Made by a program: the position numbers and the translations under genes
The notes under the pieces: model-generated
The model's input: the letters and a program-made list of their open reading frames with translations, nothing else
Database searches by the model: none
What the model was told of the DNA's origin: nothing
In this document: positions 7,303-18,840 of the stretch, piece after piece
How the letters are laid out: every line of letters begins with the position of its first letter
Numbering within the stretch: the stretch's first letter is position 1
IMG/VR virus record: IMGVR_UViG_2778261256_000004
Span: 1 to 22,473 of that record
Direction: 5' to 3' (one strand)
DNA from: a virus
Lineage: Duplodnaviria; Heunggongvirae; Uroviricota; Caudoviricetes
Length of the DNA: 22,473 nt

Positions 7303-8200
7303 GCACTGGAAAAACATTACTATTTATAAACTTTCTCGTGAGGCGGATCTGACCGACTTAGAAGATAAAAAGAAAATGATCCTTTTCACGCCATGCGGTA
7401 GTCAGGATATGGCCAAGTTCGGTTTTGTATCGCCATTTGGTGATAATTCCGAAGTTATCGCTATGCATGGAAATGGTTTTATCCTTGTTGAAGCAAAGCG
7501 CGAAACAAAAATTCTTCCCCCGCCGGTTATCCAGCGAGCTATTCAAGAAAAAATTGAAAAACTTGAGCAAGAACAAGCGCGTAAACTGAAGAAAACAGAG
7601 AAGGACTCCCTGAAAGACGAAGTTCTGCATTCTCTTCTGCCACGGGCTTTTTCAAAGTTTTCTGTTATCCAGGCGATCTACGACGGTTCAACTAAACGTA
7701 TCTATATCAATGCCAGCGCGCGGCAGGCAGAGGATATGCTCGCGCTTATGCGTAAGTCTCTGGGTTCTCTTCCTGTTGTTCCCCTGAGTGTTGAAAATCC
7801 CATTGAATTAACGCTGACCGACTGGGTACGTGATGGTAGTGCTCCACAGGGATTTCAAATGGGGGATGCGGCAGAACTTAAGGCAGTGCTTGAGGATGGC
7901 GGTATTGCCCGAGTGAAAAAGCAGGATTTGGGAAGCGATGAAATTTCCACACACCTGGAAGCTGGCAAGCTCGTCACTAAGTTGGCACTCGACTGGCAGA
8001 ACCGCATTAAATTTACACTGGACCATAACTTCAGCCTTACCAGCGTCAAATTTGCGGATGAATTGCTTGAGCAGAACTCTGATATTGATAGTGAAGATGT
8101 TGCGCAGCGACTGGACGCAGATTTCTTCCTGTTGACCAGTGAAATTTCGTGCCTGGTTGATGCTCTGGTAAATGCCCTTGGTGGAGAGGCTAAGCAGTGA
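7295..8200 (+). CDS. hrdC: RdgC-like recombination-associated protein (P1 HrdC)
   Basis: 301 aa from the ATG at 7295. Strong collinear similarity to E. coli RdgC as recalled, including blocks [63 protein letters not shown] and a C-terminal GGEA. The track ORF from 7181 is an upstream extension. Confidence 0.88.
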
Positions 8201-10461
8201 AAGAGCTGTGCTATGGATCTGTTTGCAGTGGAATTGAAGCCGCGAGTATTGCCTGGGAACCGTTGGGTATGCGTCCGGCGTGGTTTGCTGAAATCGAGTC
8301 TTTTCCATCTGCCGTTCTTGCGCACCGCTGGCCCCATGTCGCGAACCTTGGCGACATGACAAAACTCGCCCAAAAAGTCCAGGCTGGAGAAATTGAAGCC
8401 CCTGATGTGCTCGTCGGGGGTACGCCTTGTCAGGCATTCAGTATCGCGGGCTTACGTGGTGGGCTTGATGATGAACGCGGCGCGCTAACTTTGAAGTATG
8501 TGGAGCTTGCAAATGCAATTGACGACAAACGGTCTGAGTCCTTCCTCAAACCGACAGTTATCGTCTGGGAAAATGTCCCAGGAGTCCTGTCATCAGCAGA
8601 CAACGCGTTCGGATGTTTCCTTGCCGGATTGGCTGGAGAAGATGCGCCATTCGAACCTGGTGATCGACCTGAATCACGAAAAAGTAACACGTTCTGGCGG
8701 TGGGATGTCAAAACCGGTTGCCATGCTCCAAAGTGGCCGCAGTGTGGTTGTATTTATGGACCGCAGCGAAAGGTGGCCTGGAGAATCCTTGATGCCCAAT
8801 ACTTCGGAGTGGCACAACGACGCCGACGCGTGTTTGTTGTCGCAAGTGCTCGAACAGACCTCGATCCCGCAACGGTACTTTTTGAGTTCGAAGGCGTGCG
8901 CCGGAATATTGCGCCGAGCCGAAAAAAGAAGGAAATCGCTTCCGCCATTACTGCAAATGGCGCTGCAATCAGTGGCGAAAGCCTAAATCCATGCCTACAC
9001 GCTGGCATGTCCCCCGATATGAAATCGACGAAAGCCGTAAACGGTTTCAGGATGGCGGCATTTGGGGAATATATTGACGATGAAACCGCATCGACAGTAA
9101 AGGCAAGAGACTTTAAAGATGCCACTGACCTTGCCGTTTTTAGCAGCACTGGAGCAGGTTTTTGGTCAGAAGGGCATGGTACATTGCGGGCGCGTGAGCA
9201 AGAAAGCCATGAGCATCTTGTTACATTGGCTTTTCCTGAGCGTATGAGTGGTACACAACATGCAGCAACTAAGAATACTTCACCATCTCTAATGGCTCAA
9301 AATCCAACTGCTGTTTGCTATGAAGTAAGAAACGAAGAAGTAGCTGTCCGCCGTCTTACCCCTGTCGAATGTGAGAGACTTCAAGGTTTTCCTGATGGAC
9401 ATACGTTGATCCCTACGGAAAAGCGTAAAAAAGTTAATTCAGATGAACTGGCATATCTGCGCAATCACTATCCAGATTTAAGCGAAGAAGAGGCCGCGAT
9501 GCTTGCAGCTGACGGACCGCGTTACAAAGCGATCGGCAATAGTATGGCGATACCAGTAATGCGCTGGATTGGCGAGCGGATTACCAAGGCTGCATGTCGG
9601 CAGAATGAAGGGCGTGAAACAAAAGAGCGAAAAGTTAAACCAGCGGCAGAATTCGAACGGTCCATATTCAAATGGGCTGGTGGAAAATTTGGTGTTCTGG
9701 AACAAATCTTTCGCTATTTGCCAGAAGGGAAGCGCCTGATCGAACCTTTTGTCGGTGGCGGAGCTGTCTTCACGAATGCCGGATACCAGGAAAATCTGCT
9801 AAATGATGTGAATGCTGACCTGATTAACTTTTACAAGACTCTGCAACGCGAGGCGCATTCACTTATCACACTGGCGCGTCGGTTTTTCCAGGACTACAAC
9901 ACACAGGAAGGATACCTGGCAGTACGGAATGCGTTTAACAAACAAGTCTATGATGATTTACATCGCGCAGCGGCGTTTTTGTTCCTGAACCGACATTGTT
10001 TTAACGGATTGACGCGTTACAACCAGGCCGGTGAGTTCAATGTCGGTTATGGGAAGTATAAAACTCCGTATTTCCCATTACAGGAGATGGAAGCCTTCCT
10101 CGGTGCGGAAGGGTGTTCTGAGTTTGTATGTGGTGATTTTGCTGCGGTGATTGAAGCTGCCGGAGAAGGAGATGTCATCTTCTGTGATCCGCCGTATGAA
10201 CCGCTTCCAAATACAGAGGGATTCACGAACTATTCCGGTCATGACTTTAAGTTTGAAGAGCAAAAACGCCTAGTGTCTCTGTTGACGGATGCTCATCGCC
10301 GAGGTGCAAAGGTTCTCATTACTAACAGTGGCGCGCCAAACATCAGAGAGCTTTATCATGACAATGGCTTCAGAGTGGAGCCTCTTTTTGCCAGACGTTC
10401 TGTGTCTTGTAAGGGGGACACTCGAGGTGTTGCTCATGACGTTTTAGGTATATTGCTCTAA
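8197..10461 (+). CDS. dmt: Bifunctional DNA methyltransferase: N-terminal C5-cytosine MTase fused to C-terminal Dam-like N6-adenine MTase (P1 Dmt-like)
   Basis: 754 aa with GTG start overlapping the hrdC stop, behind a GGAGAGG RBS. C5 motifs [12 protein letters not shown] (PCQ), VIVWENVPG (ENV), [12 protein letters not shown] and [10 protein letters not shown]. The C-terminal 270 aa align block by block with E. coli Dam ([42 protein letters not shown], catalytic FCDPPYEP). Confidence 0.92.
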
Positions 10462-12214: not shown

Positions 12215-12649
12215 ATGTTCGGTAAATTGTTCGGCAAGAAAGTCGCTTCTGCAAAAGTAGAGCTGAAAAAAGTTGAGAATCGCGATCTGATGGAGGCCAT
12301 CATCGGTGGCTGTTTGTTGGTGTCTGCCGCTGATGGTGAAATCGAAAAAGAAGAAACAGCGAAACTTGATCAGCTTGTCCGCTCTAATCCGCGTCTTAGT
12401 CATTTTGGTAACGAAATTACTGCAACAATTACCCGCTTTACCGAGCAACTGGAAGCTGGCTTCCGTGTTGGTCGCATGAATATCCTTCGCGAAATTGAAG
12501 ATATCAAAAACGATCCAAAAGAAGCGGAAGAAGTATTCGTTAACATGCTGACAATTGCAGAAGCGGACGGTGAAATCGAGCCAGCAGAACACAAAGTACT
12601 GGAAGAAGTAGGCCGTCGTTTAGGTCTTCGTGTGGAAGATTATCTGTAA
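12215..12649 (+). CDS. tciA: TerB-like tellurite-resistance family protein (P1 TciA-like)
   Basis: 144-aa ORF with ATG at 12215 behind a GAGGGA RBS. Duplicated A(A/E)ADGEIE motif and acidic helical character typical of the TerB fold. Followed by two tiny overlapping membrane-peptide genes, as in the P1 tci cluster. Confidence 0.8.
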   Translation: MFGKLFGKKVASAKVELKKVENRDLMEAIIGGCLLVSAADGEIEKEETAKLDQLVRSNPRLSHFGNEITATITRFTEQLEAGFRVGRMNILREIEDIKNDPKEAEEVFVNMLTIAEADGEIEPAEHKVLEEVGRRLGLRVEDYL

Positions 12650-12813
12650 TGGCAAGCAAGGCACGTATCGCAATCGCCATTGGTTTTCTCTTGCTGTCCG
12701 TGCTGGTGGATTTCACCAGCACAATCCTGTCAGTTTTATCGGACGGGGCGTTGGTGGCAGTAGCTGTAACATTGGTATGGCCGATATTAAAAACAGCTTC
12801 TAAGGATCAGTGA
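12649..12813 (+). CDS. Small hydrophobic peptide, 54 aa (tciB-like)
   Basis: ATG overlaps the tciA stop (TAATG). Sequence MASKARIAIAIGFLLLSVLVDFTSTILSVLSDGALVAVAVTLVWPILKTASKDQ is two predicted transmembrane helices. Below the ORF-track size cut-off; found by hand. Confidence 0.55.
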   Translation: MASKARIAIAIGFLLLSVLVDFTSTILSVLSDGALVAVAVTLVWPILKTASKDQ

Positions 12814-12923: not shown

Positions 12924-12999
12924 GGCCCTTTAGCTCAGTGGTTAGAGCTGGCGACTCATAATCGCACGGTCACCGGTTCAAGTCCGGTAGGGGCCACCA
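12924..12999 (+). tRNA. tRNA-Ile (CAU anticodon, lysidine type; host ileX-like)
   Basis: 76-nt cloverleaf: acceptor GGCCCTT/AGGGGCC, anticodon arm GGCGA-CTCATAA-TCGCA, T-arm ACCGG-TTCAAGT-CCGGT, encoded CCA. Near-identical over most positions to E. coli tRNA-Ile2 as recalled, which favours Ile over Met. Confidence 0.8.
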
Positions 13000-13285
13000 T
13001 ATTTGGTTGTAACACGGCGTCTGGCACATGCGTCGTTAGCGGTCTGGTGACGTTAAAAGGGGGGAACCTTGCCCCTAGCTCAGGCAACGAACCAGGTAGC
13101 CGGAATGTGCAAGCCACCGTTTGTTGTTTCTCGGGTAAAGGGATTCACCATCCTGGCGATTCGGTGTGACAGCCGGGAAGAGTCCGGCGCATTAATCCTG
13201 ATTTTCTGGTGATGACTCATATCGTTAGGAGTGATTTGAGTATGCCGATTATATCTGACATTCAGCACGCCTGGGTGGAGTGCTA

Positions 13286-14650
13286 ATGTCTGCATCCCCT
13301 CTTGAATCCATGCCAAATTCCCTTAGTGCAGAACAAGCTGTACTTGGTGGCTTAATGCTTGATAACTGCCGCTGGGATGAAGTTGCAGATCGTATAGTTG
13401 CTGATGATTTTTATACCAGTGCTCATCGTGAAATTTTCAGTGAGATGGAGAGGTTATTAAGTCATGGCAAACCGATTGATTTGATAACACTTGCTGAAGC
13501 ACTTGAACAGAACGGTAAATTAGAACGCGCCGGTGGTTTTGCGTACCTTGCGGAGATGTCAAAGAACACGCCCAGCGCGGCAAATATTTGTGCTTATGCG
13601 GATATCGTTCGTGAACGCGCGGTTGTTCGTGAAATGATTTCCGTCGCAAATGAAATAGCCGAAGCTGGATATGCGCAGGATGGCAGGGGCAGCAATGAAT
13701 TGCTGGATATGGCCGAGCGCCGCGTTTTTGAAATAGCTGAAAAACGACAAAAGAGCGGTAGTGGTCCAAAAGATATCGCCAGCATTCTCGATGCAACGGT
13801 ATCTCGCATAGAAGAGTTGTTTCAGCGACCGCATGATGGTGTAACGGGGCTTGATACCGGATTTACCGATCTCAATAAGAAGACGGCAGGACTTCAGGCG
13901 TCCGATCTCATTATTGTCGCCGCCCGCCCATCGATGGGGAAGACTACGTTTGCGATGAATCTCGTCGAAAATGCCGCAGCCCGTAACGATAAGCCCGTAT
14001 TGGTTTTTAGCCTTGAGATGCCGAGCCACCAGCTGATGATGCGCTCACTGGCTTCTCTTGCACGCGTTGATCAGACTCGTATTCGAACAGGGCAACTTAA
14101 CGACGAGGATTGGGCGCGGGTTTCTGGCGCAATGGGGATTCTGTTGGACAAGCAGAATATTTTTATTGATGACTCAAGCGCCCTGACACCTACAGAGCTT
14201 CGTTCCCGCGCTCGTCGTGTTTATAAAGAAAATGGTGGTTTGAGCATGATTATGATCGACTACCTGCAACTTATGCGCGTCCCCGAGCTGCAAGATAACC
14301 GAACGCTGGAAATTGCCGAGATTTCTCGCTCACTGAAGGCTTTGGCGAAGGAATTACAAGTACCGGTGGTGGCATTGTCACAACTTAATCGATCGCTTGA
14401 ACAGCGTGCGGACAAACGACCGGTAAATTCAGATTTACGTGAATCAGGAGCAATTGAGCAGGACGCAGACCTGATCATGTTTCTGTATCGCGACGAAGTT
14501 TATCACCCGGATAGCGAAATGAAGGGCATTGCCGAGGTGATTATCGGTAAGCAACGAAATGGCCCAATTGGCACGGTGAGATTGGCTTTTAACGGCCAAT
14601 ACTCACGGTTTGATAACTATGCCGGTGCTGACTGGCAAGAGGATTATTAA
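13286..14650 (+). CDS. ban: Replicative DNA helicase, DnaB family (P1 Ban-like)
   Basis: 454 aa from the ATG at 13286 behind a GGTGGAG RBS (the track frame starts at GTG 13280). Collinear with E. coli DnaB over the whole length as recalled (SAEQAVLGGLMLDN, Walker A ARPSMGKTTFAMNL, IDYLQLM, SQLNRSLEQRADKRP, IIGKQRNGPIGTV). Confidence 0.93.
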   Translation: MSASPLESMPNSLSAEQAVLGGLMLDNCRWDEVADRIVADDFYTSAHREIFSEMERLLSHGKPIDLITLAEALEQNGKLERAGGFAYLAEMSKNTPSAANICAYADIVRERAVVREMISVANEIAEAGYAQDGRGSNELLDMAERRVFEIAEKRQKSGSGPKDIASILDATVSRIEELFQRPHDGVTGLDTGFTDLNKKTAGLQASDLIIVAARPSMGKTTFAMNLVENAAARNDKPVLVFSLEMPSHQLMMRSLASLARVDQTRIRTGQLNDEDWARVSGAMGILLDKQNIFIDDSSALTPTELRSRARRVYKENGGLSMIMIDYLQLMRVPELQDNRTLEIAEISRSLKALAKELQVPVVALSQLNRSLEQRADKRPVNSDLRESGAIEQDADLIMFLYRDEVYHPDSEMKGIAEVIIGKQRNGPIGTVRLAFNGQYSRFDNYAGADWQEDY

Positions 14651-15648
14651 TGCAATGGAATGAGGAAAAGCCGATGAACATCCTGATCATTGGGCGAAAA
14701 TTTGAAGCTATCAGTGATGTGAAAACATATACGGAAATGTGGGCTTATAACCTGGCCTGCGCCTTTAGTGAGGCAGGGGTAACATTGCAATACCATCGTC
14801 CATATTCCCCCAGCGTCGAAAGCCAGGAGGATTATGTTGAAGCTGTGTTGACCGCTGCGACCTCGTGTTCTGCGAAAGCCATTTTAGCGCCAGGATTGCG
14901 GTATTTTACTACGGTGCCCAGGGAAATAGGAGTGCAACTGCGTCGTCGATTCACTGGATGGGTAGCCCAGGTATACGACGGTTCTATGCTGGATTCGGCA
15001 CCAGTCGATATTACTTTTACTGTCCGCGATGATACCTGGCGGTACCTGGATAATCCCGGCAGGTTAGAGCGTCATAATCGCTTTAACAAACATGTTGGAT
15101 GGGCAGCGAATCAGGATCTGTTCCATCTGGAAACCAAAACAGACGATGTTCTGCGTATTTTTGTAGACCACGCTGCATTTGATGTTAGTGGTTTTGATCA
15201 CTCCTTAAGTATCCTTATGAACCTTCAGCGTCTGACCGTTCCGTATGAGGCCAGAACGTTGACTGATGATGGATTGGTTACCATTGATCCGGGGAATATT
15301 TCGGTAACTCCATACAGACGGACGCCGGTGCCAGCAACCGAATTTGCAGCTGAATTGCGTAAGAGTGACGTTTTTATCGTTACGCATCCCGAAAGCCTTG
15401 GATTAACTGTTCTTGAGGCGGCAATGTGCGGGGCGTTGGTATTAACGCCTCCCGATTGCCTTCCGCCAGATCGCCTGGCTTTGGTGAACCATATGGTTAT
15501 CAAGTCGCGGATTGATTGGGATGAGGTTATTGCTCGCGTTGATCGCGTGAAAAATGCTGAAAAGGTCCAGTGTCACACCTGGTCGGCAATTGCGGAAAAG
15601 ATGCTTGAGACGTTTATCACGCAGAAACCGTCGTGCGGTAACGGATAA
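14650..15648 (+). CDS. Glycosyltransferase-like protein (GT-B fold C-terminal motif), co-transcribed downstream of ban
   Basis: 332-aa ORF whose ATG overlaps the ban stop. An alternative ATG at 14674 has a better GAGG RBS. The C-terminal HPESLGLTVLEAAMCGALVLTP matches the E-x7-E region of group-1 glycosyltransferases (motif inference). Confidence 0.65.
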   Translation: MQWNEEKPMNILIIGRKFEAISDVKTYTEMWAYNLACAFSEAGVTLQYHRPYSPSVESQEDYVEAVLTAATSCSAKAILAPGLRYFTTVPREIGVQLRRRFTGWVAQVYDGSMLDSAPVDITFTVRDDTWRYLDNPGRLERHNRFNKHVGWAANQDLFHLETKTDDVLRIFVDHAAFDVSGFDHSLSILMNLQRLTVPYEARTLTDDGLVTIDPGNISVTPYRRTPVPATEFAAELRKSDVFIVTHPESLGLTVLEAAMCGALVLTPPDCLPPDRLALVNHMVIKSRIDWDEVIARVDRVKNAEKVQCHTWSAIAEKMLETFITQKPSCGNG

Positions 15649-15670
15649 AAATTGAACCCATTATAAAAGA

Positions 15671-15690
15671 AAAGCCCGATCGCCGGGCTT
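15671..15690. terminator. Bidirectional intrinsic terminator between convergent operons
   Basis: GCCCG-atcgc-CGGGC hairpin flanked by AAAAGAAAA on the left and TTTTCTT on the right, so it has a U tract on either strand. Sits between the dbn-like stop (15648) and the minus-strand gene ending at 15694. Confidence 0.7.
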
Positions 15691-15693
15691 TTC

Positions 15694-18840
<3,147 letters not shown>

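Follow-up and report, generated by a model that had tools for sequence, protein, structure and literature searches.

The window analysed here, which is the whole 22,473-nucleotide stretch of a Caudoviricetes virus record (IMGVR_UViG_2778261256_000004), carries an ORF of 332 codons (ATG...TAA) next to ban, a gene for a DnaB-type replicative helicase (Table 1). As judged by sequence comparison, this ORF is dbn of a P1-like phage, a gene that had already been annotated. A comparison with P1 dbn, proposed in the preliminary description, gave 96% amino-acid identity, with 12 substitutions that leave the conserved motifs untouched, and DNA identity over ban-dbn was 97.7-99.0% (99% to RCS47). The gene is listed as 'function unknown, possible glycosyltransferase' in P1, 'glt' in P7, 'putative glycosyltransferase, Dbn' in RCS47 and 'glycosyltransferase family 4 protein' in RefSeq. 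It is the same gene with the same neighbours in all three phages: tciA/TerB, a tRNA and ban lie upstream and gene 5 downstream, as in P1, and ban is annotated at the matching position in P1, P7 and RCS47 (the mechanical ORF of ban begins at GTG 13280, and the P1 annotation begins at the ATG equivalent to 13286). Apart from the 12 substitutions, the window differs from P1 in that its pmgP is cut by an IS10-family element.

Table 1. Features of the ban-dbn region and of the 3' end of the window (positions in the window).
Feature	Position	Strand	Evidence or remark
ban, DnaB-type replicative helicase	13286..14650	+	Pfam DnaB_C 359 bits, DnaB 121 bits
GAGGA, Shine-Dalgarno-like site	14639..14643	+	6 nt before ATG 14650
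TAATG, ban stop and first dbn ATG, one-base overlap	14648..14652	+	read from the sequence
dbn (P7: glt)	14650..15648	+	predicted 332-aa (or 324-aa) soluble GT-B glycosyltransferase, phrog_2518
GAGGA, Shine-Dalgarno-like site	14662..14666	+	7 nt before ATG 14674
Alternative start M9	14674..14676	+	conserved start of the family, in frame, 24 nt downstream
N-terminal Rossmann-like domain, about residues 9-165, presumed acceptor side	14674..15144	+	model; approximate boundaries
D173-H174	15166..15171	+	invariant in 71 sequences; end of the first strand of the C-terminal domain
Pfam Glycos_transf_1 region, donor-binding, residues 229-315	15334..15594	+	25.1 bits
EX7E motif E248...E256, nucleotide-sugar binding signature of retaining GT4	15391..15417	+	H246-P-E248-S-L-G-L-T-V-L-E256-A-A
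Hairpin, 12 bp, flanked by an A-run and a T-run	15667..15695		between convergent dbn and gene 5
pmgO, GT42/DUF115 (MptE-like) transferase-like	21582..22244	+	phrog_4603, E 4e-74
pmgP, 5' part, first 85 codons, DUF115-like	22142..22396	+	matches P1 PmgP to residue 85
End of IS10/ISVsa5-family insertion sequence, interrupting pmgP	22397..22473		window ends inside

A PHROG profile search matched phrog_2518 over the whole ORF (E 5e-238), dbn was intact in 83 of 84 P1-like loci, and strong purifying selection was evident among 50 dbn alleles (dN/dS 0.12), with 31, 14 and 76 variable sites at codon positions 1, 2 and 3, respectively. By these sequence measures, dbn is a genuine gene and not a chance reading frame. 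The hairpin 3' of dbn (fold energy -18.9 kcal/mol, z -3.46 against shuffles), which was missing from the list of a simple terminator scan, is probably a two-way intrinsic terminator closing the ban-dbn transcript. Further downstream, a gene that the P1 annotation names pmgO is followed by the truncated pmgP, where homology to P1 ends at 22397. The last 77 nt match, with 100% identity, a repeat found in 3028 plasmid records; in plasmid R100 this repeat lies 31 nt before the gene for an 'IS4-like element ISVsa5 family transposase'. The window does not reach pmgQ.

The start codon of dbn overlaps the ban stop codon, as had been described: the last A of the TAA at 14648-14650 is also the first base of the ATG at 14650-14652, and translational coupling here is suggested by this stop/start overlap in the sequence alone. 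A GAGGA lies 6-7 nt ahead of both candidate ATGs, so the sequence by itself does not decide which start is used. Nearly all Dbn homologues begin at the equivalent of M9 (MK/NILIIG), homology between the window and eight P1-like loci breaks exactly at ATG 14674 to leave a gene of 324 aa, and residues 1-5 are disordered in the AlphaFold2 model. Stop/start overlaps of one or four bases are common in the window, and Dbn homologues in other phages overlap whichever gene comes before them. The ORFs at 12215-12649 and 12649-12813 overlap in the same way as ban and dbn.

The AlphaFold2 model of Dbn (pLDDT 88.1, pTM 0.85) alternates strands and helices in both halves, with the pattern E10-14, H27-41, E45-49, H59-72, E77-80, H91-100 and E104-109 in the N-terminal domain. 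Foldseek matched it to GT-B/GT4 enzymes at probability 1.0, with 81 PDB and 103 viral matches at E<=1e-3. GlgM, PimB', BshA, GtfC/Gtf3 and a glycosyltransferase of phage HY126 (9ir0) were among the matches at probability 1.0, as was a Tupanvirus glycosyltransferase (E 4e-18, TM 0.76/0.80); WaaB-type lipopolysaccharide (LPS) glycosyltransferases ranked 30 and 33, and UDP-GlcNAc 2-epimerases, which also have the GT-B fold, were found as well. The fold check proposed in the preliminary description thus came out in favour of a predicted GT-B glycosyltransferase fold, which the model confirms. In sequence, Dbn appears to be a borderline, divergent member of Glycos_transf_1, scoring just below the curated cut-off (E 1.5e-5, cut-off 26.4 bits). 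Some relatives and fusion proteins exceed this cut-off, and precomputed PF00534 matches are on record for the proteins P0001, P0013 and P0018.

The C-terminal GT-B-type motif, for which a chance match had been considered, is present and conserved: across 71 relatives sharing 22-59% identity, E256 is invariant and E248 is found in at least 90%. It aligns with the same motif in chains 3c4q/3c48, deposited as 'Predicted glycosyltransferases', which we take to be MshA, and in the AmGGT glucosyltransferase 8xsg (E 3e-4). AmGGT is a retaining UDP-glucosyltransferase (PMC12159676). In the N-terminal domain, which by the general working of GT-B enzymes would bind the acceptor, as we infer, D110, G150 and W151 are near-invariant. 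The invariant pair D173-H174 (D165-H166 in M9 numbering) presumably stands where classical GT4 enzymes carry the G-R...K (Arg/Lys) diphosphate-binding motif, an equivalence of sequence place only. Dbn lacks a transmembrane segment (the maximum Kyte-Doolittle value over 19-residue windows is 1.53) and is acidic (pI 5.6; N-terminal domain, pI 6.1), and it matched no PADLOC defence-system protein model at E<=1.

We also assessed the loci of Dbn homologues in other phages. With tblastn, homologues of PmgO (phrog_4603), PmgP (phrog_2111), Dbn (phrog_2518) and PmgQ (phrog_1962) were found to be mutually adjacent in the contigs L005, L093 and L088 and in coliphage EP_H11 (L100). In L004, a Citrobacter record of 95 kb that also encodes a PmgS-like protein, 5 kb separate Dbn from PmgP and PmgQ upstream of it, and five large-phage contigs carry a phrog_1962/PmgQ-like gene directly 3' of the Dbn homologue. 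Citrobacter phage phiNP has the order Rz - PmgO - PmgP - PmgQ - minor tail protein - terS; because Dbn is missing there, Dbn appears to be an optional member of this cassette. The PmgO homologue of phage D3, orf7, is flanked by the major head protein gene and head-tail adaptor genes. P1 encodes all four cassette genes, non-contiguously: about 6 kb of minus-strand tail genes separate dbn from pmgO in P1-like phages, ppp fills the slot between pmgP and pmgQ, and pmgO-pmgP-ppp-pmgQ lie downstream of LPpmgL, a late promoter annotated upstream of pmgL in the P1 record. Within P1-like loci, Dbn was full length in 81 of 81, PmgO in 69 of 72 and PmgP in 68 of 70. Dbn homologues elsewhere sit among genes for glycosyltransferases, sugar-nucleotide synthesis, pyruvyl-transferases and methyl-transferases, and some members of the family are fused to a second GT1 domain or a methyltransferase. 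No flippase-, polymerase- or ABC-transporter-type Pfam family was found among the genes called in the phage loci with a Dbn homologue. The conserved partners of dbn are pmgO, pmgP and pmgQ, about 6 kb away, and not the adjoining helicase gene; dbn itself was known before, and its link to the cassette appears to be new.

Sequence identities connect the P1-like genes with the cassette of contig L005: the window PmgO is 39% identical (E 2e-42) to the product of the second gene upstream of the Dbn homologue, P1 PmgP is 55% identical (E 5e-78) to that of the adjoining phrog_2111 gene, and P1 PmgQ is 48% identical to that of the phrog_1962 gene. PmgO and PmgP resemble GT42/DUF115 transferases. The best match of their joint profile, a weak one (E 0.08-0.2), was the Campylobacter jejuni sialyltransferase Cst-II, and both match Pfam MptE-like, a family that takes its name from a pyrophosphokinase, below the cut-off (23.4 bits for PmgO). 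A weak precomputed Pfam match to the WaaZ Kdo-III transferase family is on record for DUF115-like partners, in a Colwellia locus. PmgQ is predicted from its model to be a GT8-like GT-A enzyme: the model is a compact GT-A domain (pLDDT 95), the DLD motif is invariant in the family, and Skp1 alpha-galactosyltransferase, glycogenin, LgtC and GlyE were matched at probability 1.0. Its fold matches also include WbbM, which, like LgtC, is a lipooligosaccharide/O-antigen enzyme.

The preliminary description regarded the coupling of a sugar transferase to a replicative helicase gene as an odd pairing. It is highly improbable that TAATG reflects a functional tie, either through a fixed stoichiometry of Dbn and Ban or through modification of Ban or another replication protein by Dbn. 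The overlap itself, the common operon with its probable terminator 3' of dbn and the retention of the ban-dbn arrangement in 73 of 81 P1-like loci would suit such a tie. However, a 101-aa ORF (phrog_12809) stands between ban and dbn in the eight P1-like loci where dbn starts at M9, and a Ban-like gene was found in none of the 14 loci carrying a Dbn homologue outside the P1 genus. The conserved start, 24 nt further on, is preceded by a Shine-Dalgarno site of its own, neither ban nor dbn is essential, and P7 glt contains a nonsense codon although P7 ban is intact. The comparison across loci indicates that the pairing is an accident of layout, ban being an upstream neighbour and not a functional partner. 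It would be just as surprising if Dbn glycosylated phage DNA against restriction, as the T4 alpha- and beta-glucosyltransferases or the HY126 enzyme do, with the position beside a replication gene reflecting this role. The T4 and HY126 enzymes have the GT-B fold in common with Dbn, the HY126 glycosyltransferase being the second-best PDB fold match, but GT-B enzymes are all alike at this level (TM about 0.55 to 9ir0). The place of dbn after a helicase gene, the large-phage homologues near RecA and DEAD-box helicase genes, and Dmt, encoded upstream in the window, whose C5-cytosine methylase domain could in principle feed a TET-type pathway, also point towards DNA. The acidity of Dbn and its GT8-like and GT42-like partners, which are not base-modifying, point away from it. 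The T4 and HY126 enzymes require 5-hydroxymethyl- or 5-hydroxy-cytosine in DNA; HY126 DNA contains arabinosylated 5-hydroxycytosine (PMC13326640). In contrast, no hydroxymethylase, hydroxylase or TET-like gene was found in a Pfam scan of 12 window ORFs. Ordinary restriction enzymes cut P1 DNA, in which methylated bases are the only modifications known, and we know of no pathway to hydroxymethylated or hydroxylated bases in P1. In published work, dbn, pmgO, pmgP and pmgQ were all scored non-essential by CRISPRi (PMC10695390), and in-frame deletions of each were viable with a normal restriction phenotype (PMC9024508), which argues against DNA protection. For the dbn deletion, which bears on the restriction test proposed in the preliminary description, normal plating and 'normal restriction' were recorded on EcoA, EcoB and EcoK hosts, all type I systems, in a Dar+ background (PMC9024508, Table S3), and modification of DNA, as that description had suggested, is therefore not borne out.

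We tentatively propose instead that Dbn catalyses one step of a non-essential, four-enzyme glycan pathway in the cytoplasm. Dbn would be a soluble cytoplasmic GT-B enzyme of the GT4-like EX7E type, for which a retaining mechanism is expected; its C-terminal domain would hold a host nucleotide-sugar, presumably a nucleotide-hexose, and pass the sugar to an acceptor on the N-terminal domain. Together with PmgO and PmgP (GT42/DUF115-like) and PmgQ (GT8-like GT-A, DLD motif), it would build a short oligosaccharide, one sugar per enzyme, on an acceptor accessible from the cytoplasm during lytic growth, and this single pathway would be dispensable in the laboratory. The lack of a transmembrane segment in Dbn and of transport families in the phage loci was counted in favour of the cytoplasmic location. 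In P1, dbn occupies the 3' end of the C1-repressed ban operon, and pmgO-pmgP-ppp-pmgQ stand about 6 kb off, 3' of LPpmgL. Several observations speak against the pathway. The ban operon is early and C1-controlled, whereas the other genes lie 3' of an annotated late promoter, so that co-expression of dbn with pmgO, pmgP and pmgQ is assumed. Moreover, PmgO and PmgP resemble known transferases only weakly (E about 0.1 to Cst-II), the window pmgP is broken by the IS element although dbn is intact, and the Dbn family has D-H at the presumed R/K site and scores below the Glycos_transf_1 cut-off.

Several known systems share parts of this design. Like Dbn, the retaining GT-B enzymes of GT4 (PimA/PimB', MshA, BshA, GlgM and Agt/AmGGT) have two Rossmann-like domains and the EX7E motif, but Dbn is only about 10-13% identical to them, is small (324 aa) and differs in its sub-cut-off Pfam score and its invariant D-H at the presumed R/K place. 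The enzymes of serine-rich-repeat adhesins (GtfC/Gtf3 of GT-B type and GlyE-type GT8) glycosylate protein stepwise in the cytoplasm; GtfC and Gtf3 are Dbn fold matches of similar size, GlyE, glycogenin and the Skp1 galactosyltransferase, which are among the PmgQ fold matches, all extend protein-linked glycans, and both the adhesin system and, as proposed, the P1 set comprise several soluble transferases and no flippase. This likeness is structural only (TM 0.5-0.6), however, and the P1 set is without a priming GtfA/B-type enzyme and an identified serine-rich acceptor. The Gtr systems (GtrA/GtrB/GtrC) are likewise phage-encoded and non-essential. They consist of a membrane flippase, a bactoprenol-linked GT-A enzyme and a periplasmic GT-C enzyme expressed in the lysogen, whereas Dbn has no membrane segment and PmgQ is modelled as a compact GT-A domain; no Gtr-type flippase or integral-membrane glucosyltransferase Pfam family was found among the genes neighbouring Dbn homologues in phage loci.

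As to the acceptor, a phage virion protein is our first guess, a tentative one, followed by a glycolipid of the host envelope, for instance the LPS core, which we hold to be more doubtful; the rest of our expectation falls to something else. It is possible, if uncertain, that P1 and many unrelated phages of Gram-negative bacteria have in common three or four soluble glycosyltransferases, a conserved set encoded together with late or structural genes and building an oligosaccharide on virion protein from host nucleotide-sugars, CMP-Kdo possibly among them. Coliphage EP_H11, large environmental phages and lambdoid prophages (Citrobacter phiNP, for example) would be among these phages, and the set would comprise two GT42/DUF115-like enzymes, one GT8-like enzyme and, optionally, the GT-B enzyme Dbn; D3-like Pseudomonas phages have at least the PmgO homologue. 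If this were true, pmgO, pmgP and pmgQ, 'putative morphogenetic' genes for twenty years, would constitute a virion-glycosylation pathway with dbn. We found no report of a glycan on P1 virions or on the LPS of P1 lysogens. A precedent exists in mycobacteriophages, which encode soluble glycosyltransferases that glycosylate capsid and tail-tube proteins and that the phages can grow without (Freeman et al. 2023, as cited in PMC12619734), but those enzymes belong to other families and act in other hosts, and no cassette phage, P1 included, is known to bear a glycan.

Alternatively, Dbn, PmgO, PmgP and PmgQ might act on the cytoplasmic side of the inner membrane to remodel a glycoconjugate of the host envelope, the candidates being an undecaprenyl-linked glycan and the inner or outer LPS core, which contains the P1 receptor. 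After export by host transporters, the product would mask the receptor, leading to superinfection exclusion or keeping progeny from binding debris. We also count for this alternative that E. coli K-12 is not known to have a CMP-activated sugar other than CMP-Kdo. We consider it a doubtful but serious possibility. The Colwellia homologue (40% identity) lies in a capsule-type locus with ABC2_membrane, ABC_tran, Poly_export, GT1 and MptE-like/WaaZ_KDO_III genes, which favours a lipid-linked polysaccharide acceptor, although this copy has an in-frame stop and is a pseudogene. The weak WaaZ match of DUF115-like partners, the resemblance of PmgQ to LgtC and WbbM, and the WaaB-type enzymes among the Dbn fold matches point the same way. 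Against it stands the position of the cassette, with late or structural genes around it in phiNP and D3 and an annotated late promoter 5' of it in P1; newly made LPS would then have little time to get to the surface. Because the ban operon is repressed in the wild-type P1 prophage, classical lysogenic conversion is unlikely, and the large-phage contigs with the Dbn-PmgQ pair may be lytic, in which case seroconversion would be without obvious value. Lipid-acceptor GT-B enzymes typically have a basic membrane-binding surface, whereas Dbn and its N-terminal domain are acidic. It is improbable that the glycosyltransferase likeness is superficial, with Dbn being an inactive relic or a Rossmann scaffold for a non-glycosyl reaction (an epimerase or binding protein). 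The sub-threshold Glycos_transf_1 score, the epimerases among the fold matches, D-H at what we take to be the place of the GT4 R/K motif, the lack of a laboratory phenotype of the dbn deletion and the disrupted copies in P7 and Colwellia speak for this reading. However, the low dN/dS of dbn, the retention of EX7E over 22-59% identity, the consistent placement of homologues among sugar-related genes and the fusions to a second GT1 domain or a methyltransferase argue against it.

The gene that follows ban is the dbn gene of bacteriophage P1, and its glycosyltransferase label is already public. The window is part of a P1-like phage-plasmid; its ban-dbn stretch (13280-15700) has counterparts of 97.2-99.0% identity in 18 phage records, the closest being Escherichia phage RCS47 (99.0%), with P1 at 97.7% and P7 at 97.5%; the window and P1 Dbn proteins are 96% identical (320/332). 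The gene is labelled 'function unknown, possible glycosyltransferase' in the P1 record, 'glt, encodes putative glycosyltransferase' in the P7 record, 'putative glycosyltransferase, Dbn' in the RCS47 record and 'glycosyltransferase family 4 protein' in RefSeq. Because the P1, P7 and RCS47 records already list it, the glycosyltransferase-like gene after ban, as reported in the preliminary description, was already known and adds nothing by itself.

The hairpin between dbn and gene 5 probably ends the transcripts arriving from both sides. Matches to the promoter consensus were less frequent than chance predicts (2 found, 4.1 expected), and an internal dbn promoter has no independent support, because one of the two sites is P2dbn, itself a prediction in the P1 record. 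The GC content across dbn (0.48-0.49) equals that of its flanks and gives no compositional sign of recent acquisition. Upstream of the tRNA genes and ban, the window carries the TerB-like genes tciA/tciB (12215-12813), as do P1 and P7; in RCS47, the closest relative over ban-dbn, a 'putative serine protease' gene (L003 291-1118) takes their place, indicating local mosaicism. The tRNA gene at 12924-12999 (+) was called tRNA-Met (anticodon CAT) by ARAGORN, and its equivalent is annotated as tRNA-Ile2 in the P1 record.

Features of the dbn region, the cassette partners and the cassette of contig L005, which has a lambda-type head module (identities and E values compare the P1 protein with its L005 counterpart)
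Feature	Position	Strand	Details
TerB-like gene and three tRNA genes	ahead of ban		
ban, DnaB-type helicase	upstream of dbn		Pfam DnaB_C, 359 bits
dbn ORF	ATG 14650 to TAA 15646-15648	+	332 codons
Hairpin, 12 bp, with A-run and T-run flanks	15667-15695, between dbn and gene 5		-18.9 kcal/mol, z -3.46
Baseplate and tail genes 5, 6, 24, 7, 25	downstream of dbn, convergent	-	
pmgO equivalent	21582-22244	+	MptE-like (Pfam); phrog_4603, E 4e-74
pmgP, 5' part	22142-22396	+	
Insertion sequence, IS10/ISVsa5 family	22397-22473		window ends inside
pmgQ	L105:4650-5351 (P1 record)		
L005 run, gene 1	L005		phrog_4603; MptE-like; PHROG label 'alpha-2,3-sialyltransferase'; PmgO, 39%, E 2e-42
L005 run, gene 2	L005		phrog_2111; MptE-like; PmgP, 55%, E 5e-78
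L005 run, gene 3	L005		weak GT-A-like ORF
L005 run, gene 4	L005		Dbn homologue; Dbn, 56%, E 1e-116
L005 run, gene 5	L005		phrog_1962; PHROG label 'glycosyltransferase'; PmgQ, 48%, E 3e-67

The overlap of the dbn start with the ban stop was confirmed, the ban stop (14648-14650) and ATG 14650 forming TAATG. A second in-frame ATG at 14674, encoding M9, corresponds to the start common to the Dbn family, nearly all homologues beginning with MK/NILIIG at this position. In the model of the long form, the first five residues have pLDDT < 50 and the first strand starts at residue 10. Homology between the window and eight other P1-like loci (L078-L085) ends exactly at ATG 14674; in these loci, ban and dbn are separated by a 101-aa ORF (phrog_12809, function not assigned; e.g. 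L078:7699-8004) whose stop codon forms an ATGA overlap with the dbn start. Since GAGGA is found 6-7 nt upstream of both ATG codons, either or both starts may be used.

Dbn is a soluble, dispensable protein with a GT-B fold and a conserved EX7E signature, and it is under purifying selection. From the sequence alone, the case for a glycosyltransferase was thin: the Pfam Glycos_transf_1 score was 25.1 bits against a cut-off of 26.4, the PHROG family of Dbn (phrog_2518) carries no assigned function, NCBIfam gave no usable match, a direct search against PDB chains returned only noise, and a profile of close homologues matched mostly KtrA Rossmann domains in the PDB. From the predicted structure, the case is clear. 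The AlphaFold2 model (17 sequences; pLDDT 88.1, pTM 0.85) consists of two alternating strand/helix halves, and Foldseek matched it with probability 1.00 to GT-B enzymes in the PDB, including the maltose-1-phosphate synthase GlgM, a glycosyltransferase of phage HY126, PimB', a sucrose-phosphate-synthase-like protein, BshA, GtfC/Gtf3 and MurG. The top match among predicted viral structures was a Tupanvirus glycosyltransferase (E 4e-18, TM 0.76/0.80).

A profile search of 1.84 billion representatives yielded 373 Dbn relatives at E<=1e-3. In an alignment of 71 relatives with 22-59% identity to the window Dbn, D173, H174, H246, E256 and G261 (332-aa numbering) were invariant and E248 was present in at least 90%, E248-x7-E256 being the EX7E signature. 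The D-H pair may replace the classical diphosphate-binding motif of GT4 in this family. The EX7E match to the PDB, recovered by the wider profile only, aligned the motif with that of AmGGT (8xsg, E 3e-4), a retaining GT-B UDP-glucosyltransferase (PMC12159676), and with chains 3c4q/3c48. Dbn would operate in the manner of the retaining transferases of GT4; compared with these, it has the fold and EX7E but lies narrowly below the Pfam cut-off and is a borderline family member. The suspected glycosyltransferase fold and motif were therefore upheld; with the fold found and the motif conserved, the reading of the motif as a chance match falls. The protein has no hydrophobic segment and is acidic (pI 5.6). 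Family members are fused to a methyltransferase, to a second GT1 domain and, by a hint, to an alpha/beta-hydrolase, which fits glycan chemistry and names no acceptor.

The genes to which Dbn is genomically linked in other phages, one of them GT8-like and two GT42/DUF115-like, are all present in P1 as well. The Dbn homologue of L005 lies inside a five-gene run, and two further contigs (L088 and L093) and coliphage EP_H11 (L100) carry the same four-gene set without the extra ORF. In tblastn searches, homologues of PmgO, PmgP, Dbn and PmgQ were adjacent in L005, L093 and EP_H11, and also in L088, where the order is different. A 95-kb Citrobacter record (L004), which also encodes a PmgS-like protein, has PmgP and PmgQ at a distance of 5 kb upstream of Dbn; two genes ahead of the Citrobacter homologue, of 231 aa and 167 aa, were considered as DUF115 partners and rejected as unrelated. 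Five contigs from large phages, about 36 to 281 kb long, have a PmgQ-like gene (phrog_1962, E 9e-33, in L094) immediately after the Dbn homologue (26-30% identity), the pair lying amid genes for sugar-nucleotide synthesis, pyruvyl-transferase, GT8-like, GT47-like and methyltransferase proteins; RecA and DEAD-box helicase genes are also present in these contigs, and a terminase gene in one of them. The metagenomic contigs L094-L099, L102 and L103 (about 36 to 281 kb) represent a large-phage clade in which the Dbn-like/PmgQ-like pair sits within a bigger glycan cluster that also holds GT8-like and GT47-like genes and genes for a CTP_transf_like+MannoseP_isomer enzyme, SAM methyltransferases and a polysaccharide pyruvyl transferase, joined in one contig by a radical SAM gene; the cluster adjoins the RecA and DEAD-box helicase genes.

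Citrobacter phage phiNP (L108 5001-6770) has the order Rz, PmgO, PmgP, PmgQ, minor tail protein and terS, and no Dbn homologue was found in it, indicating that Dbn is an optional member of a PmgO/PmgP/PmgQ core. The PmgO-like ORF of phiNP is unannotated in its record. In Pseudomonas phage D3, the PmgO homologue orf7 (L107 5951-6409) has the major head protein gene on one side and head-tail adaptor genes on the other. Further PmgO homologues are encoded by phages of Caulobacter, Brevundimonas, Klebsiella, Serratia and Xanthomonas whose records measure 265-356 kb. The diverse contexts of Dbn homologues were taken from contigs encoding Dbn-family proteins; a scan of genome contigs gave only one P1-like copy and a 209-bp fragment, and a scan of viral contigs gave only P1-like copies. 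In our literature search, no publication assigned a function to dbn, pmgO, pmgP or pmgQ or described a link among the four, and both this link and the spread of the cassette across unrelated phages, as judged from gene neighbourhood and fold prediction, seem to be new.

A Pfam scan of the remaining window ORFs overturned the idea that P1 Dbn is a lone transferase stripped of its cassette partners. In P1, pmgO, pmgP and pmgQ are annotated only as 'putative morphogenetic function'; ppp, encoding a NinI-like phosphatase, lies between pmgP and pmgQ, and dbn is 6 kb away across a tail-gene block. The partners are conserved in the P1-like loci too, 69 of 72 having a full-length PmgO and 68 of 70 a full-length PmgP. 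In the window, the insertion sequence cuts pmgP after codon 85, and one putative dbn partner is therefore broken in this element while dbn is intact. The PmgQ model (43 sequences; pLDDT 95.0, pTM 0.91) matched retaining GT-A enzymes with probability 1.00, among them Skp1 alpha-galactosyltransferase, glycogenin, LgtC, GlyE, WbbM and xyloside xylosyltransferase, and D79-L80-D81 is invariant in its family. PmgO and PmgP align with each other and share SGPS, AVN and NS...LxGxD motifs. Their joint profile best matched the Campylobacter jejuni sialyltransferase Cst-II, weakly (seven top hits, E 0.08-0.2), and their matches to the Pfam MptE-like family, which takes its name from a pyrophosphokinase, were all below the cut-off and recurred in seven proteins. 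The partners are glycosyltransferase-like, PmgQ being a GT8-like GT-A protein and PmgO and PmgP being GT42/DUF115-like; on sequence comparison, the reading of the partners as TRANSFERASES is probable, not proven, for PmgO and PmgP, because the Cst-II match is weak and the MptE-like matches are below the cut-off.

The preliminary description called the pairing with a replicative helicase gene odd and suggested that the transferase could modify DNA or a host target. The glycosyltransferase part of that reading stood; the pairing proved incidental and a DNA role unlikely. A function tied to the helicase would draw on the ban-dbn overlap, but such overlaps are common: ORFs 12215-12649 and 12649-12813 of the window overlap in the same way, and Dbn homologues in other phages overlap whichever gene precedes them. 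In addition, tblastn found no Ban-like gene in 14 loci outside the P1 genus with a Dbn homologue, ban and dbn are separated in eight elements within the genus, and dbn has the same composition as its flanks. We conclude that the pairing is an accident of genome layout, that a helicase-tied role is very improbable, and that the pairing as a mark of a DNA-modifying enzyme can be dropped. Glycosylation of DNA by Dbn is similarly remote. Gonzales et al. deleted dbn, pmgO, pmgP, ppp and pmgQ in frame; all of the resulting phages were infectious and, on hosts with EcoA, EcoB and EcoK, were scored as having 'normal restriction' (PMC9024508, Table S3), so the proposed check of restriction sensitivity is essentially answered, negatively, for these type I systems. 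Nor does Dbn correspond to a T4-type DNA glucosyltransferase system or to a Gtr-type seroconversion module, and PADLOC gave no match of Dbn to a catalogued defence protein. CRISPRi likewise found ban, dbn, pmgO, pmgP, ppp and pmgQ non-essential (PMC10695390), and, according to a preprint, dbn is one of the transcripts deregulated in an hfq mutant 20 min into infection by P1vir. That Dbn is a non-enzymatic relic has little credibility: dbn is intact from M9 in 83 of 84 P1-like copies and has a dN/dS of 0.12, versus 0.055 for ban, in the P1 lineage. The sole disrupted copy is P7 glt (L002, AF503408.1), where codon 31, TGG (W31), has become TGA; glt is for this reason annotated from a later start, and the initial strand and helix of the fold are probably missing from its product.

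We propose that PmgO, PmgP, Dbn and PmgQ may form a single pathway in which each protein transfers one sugar from a host nucleotide-sugar, with Dbn as a putative retaining hexosyltransferase. A phage virion protein is our first-ranked, tentative guess for the acceptor, because the cassette keeps company with late or structural genes (flanked by lysis genes and terS in phiNP, represented by the PmgO homologue between head and adaptor genes in D3, and downstream of the annotated late promoter LPpmgL in P1), because no flippase, polymerase or transporter is listed among the genes called in the phage versions, because Dbn and PmgQ resemble cytoplasmic extenders of protein-linked glycans (GtfC/Gtf3, Agt/AmGGT, GlyE, glycogenin and the Skp1 transferase), and because mycobacteriophages offer a precedent for virion glycosylation (Freeman et al. 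2023, as cited in PMC12619734). For tailed phages with Gram-negative hosts, our literature search yielded no paper on glycosylated virions. As the acceptor, host LPS or another lipid-linked glycan ranks second, a guess only slightly less favoured than the first. PmgQ also resembles LgtC and WbbM, and a 40%-identical Dbn homologue on Colwellia sp. metagenomic contigs (L089:7713-8702) belongs to a capsule-type locus that includes ABC transporter, Poly_export, GT1 and MptE-like/WaaZ-like genes, but this copy has an in-frame stop after codon 63, the same truncated protein recurring on 15 contigs.

Through the cassette, four genes of a classic model phage that are non-essential and had no explanation become a single pathway open to testing, at little cost, since strains with in-frame deletions of each of the four are already available (PMC9024508). 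If the virion were the target, virion glycosylation would extend from mycobacteriophages to the main phages of enterobacterial genetics; if LPS were the target, the pathway would be a new route of receptor remodelling.

Elsewhere in the window, ORF 8197-10461 (+) encodes Dmt (754 aa), which combines a C5-cytosine DNA methylase domain (E 2e-36) with a D12-class N6-adenine methylase domain (E 6e-56), as the P1 record also states. In the plasmid maintenance region, the parA-like and repA-like (Rep3) genes flank an ORF of 269 aa that has a T5orf172 domain (2413-3222, -). ORF 20840-21418 (+), equivalent to P1 pmgM ('putative morphogenetic'), has a weak VRR-NUC match and a match to phrog_5702 (labelled Holliday junction resolvase, E 5e-27), which suggests a nuclease rather than a structural role.
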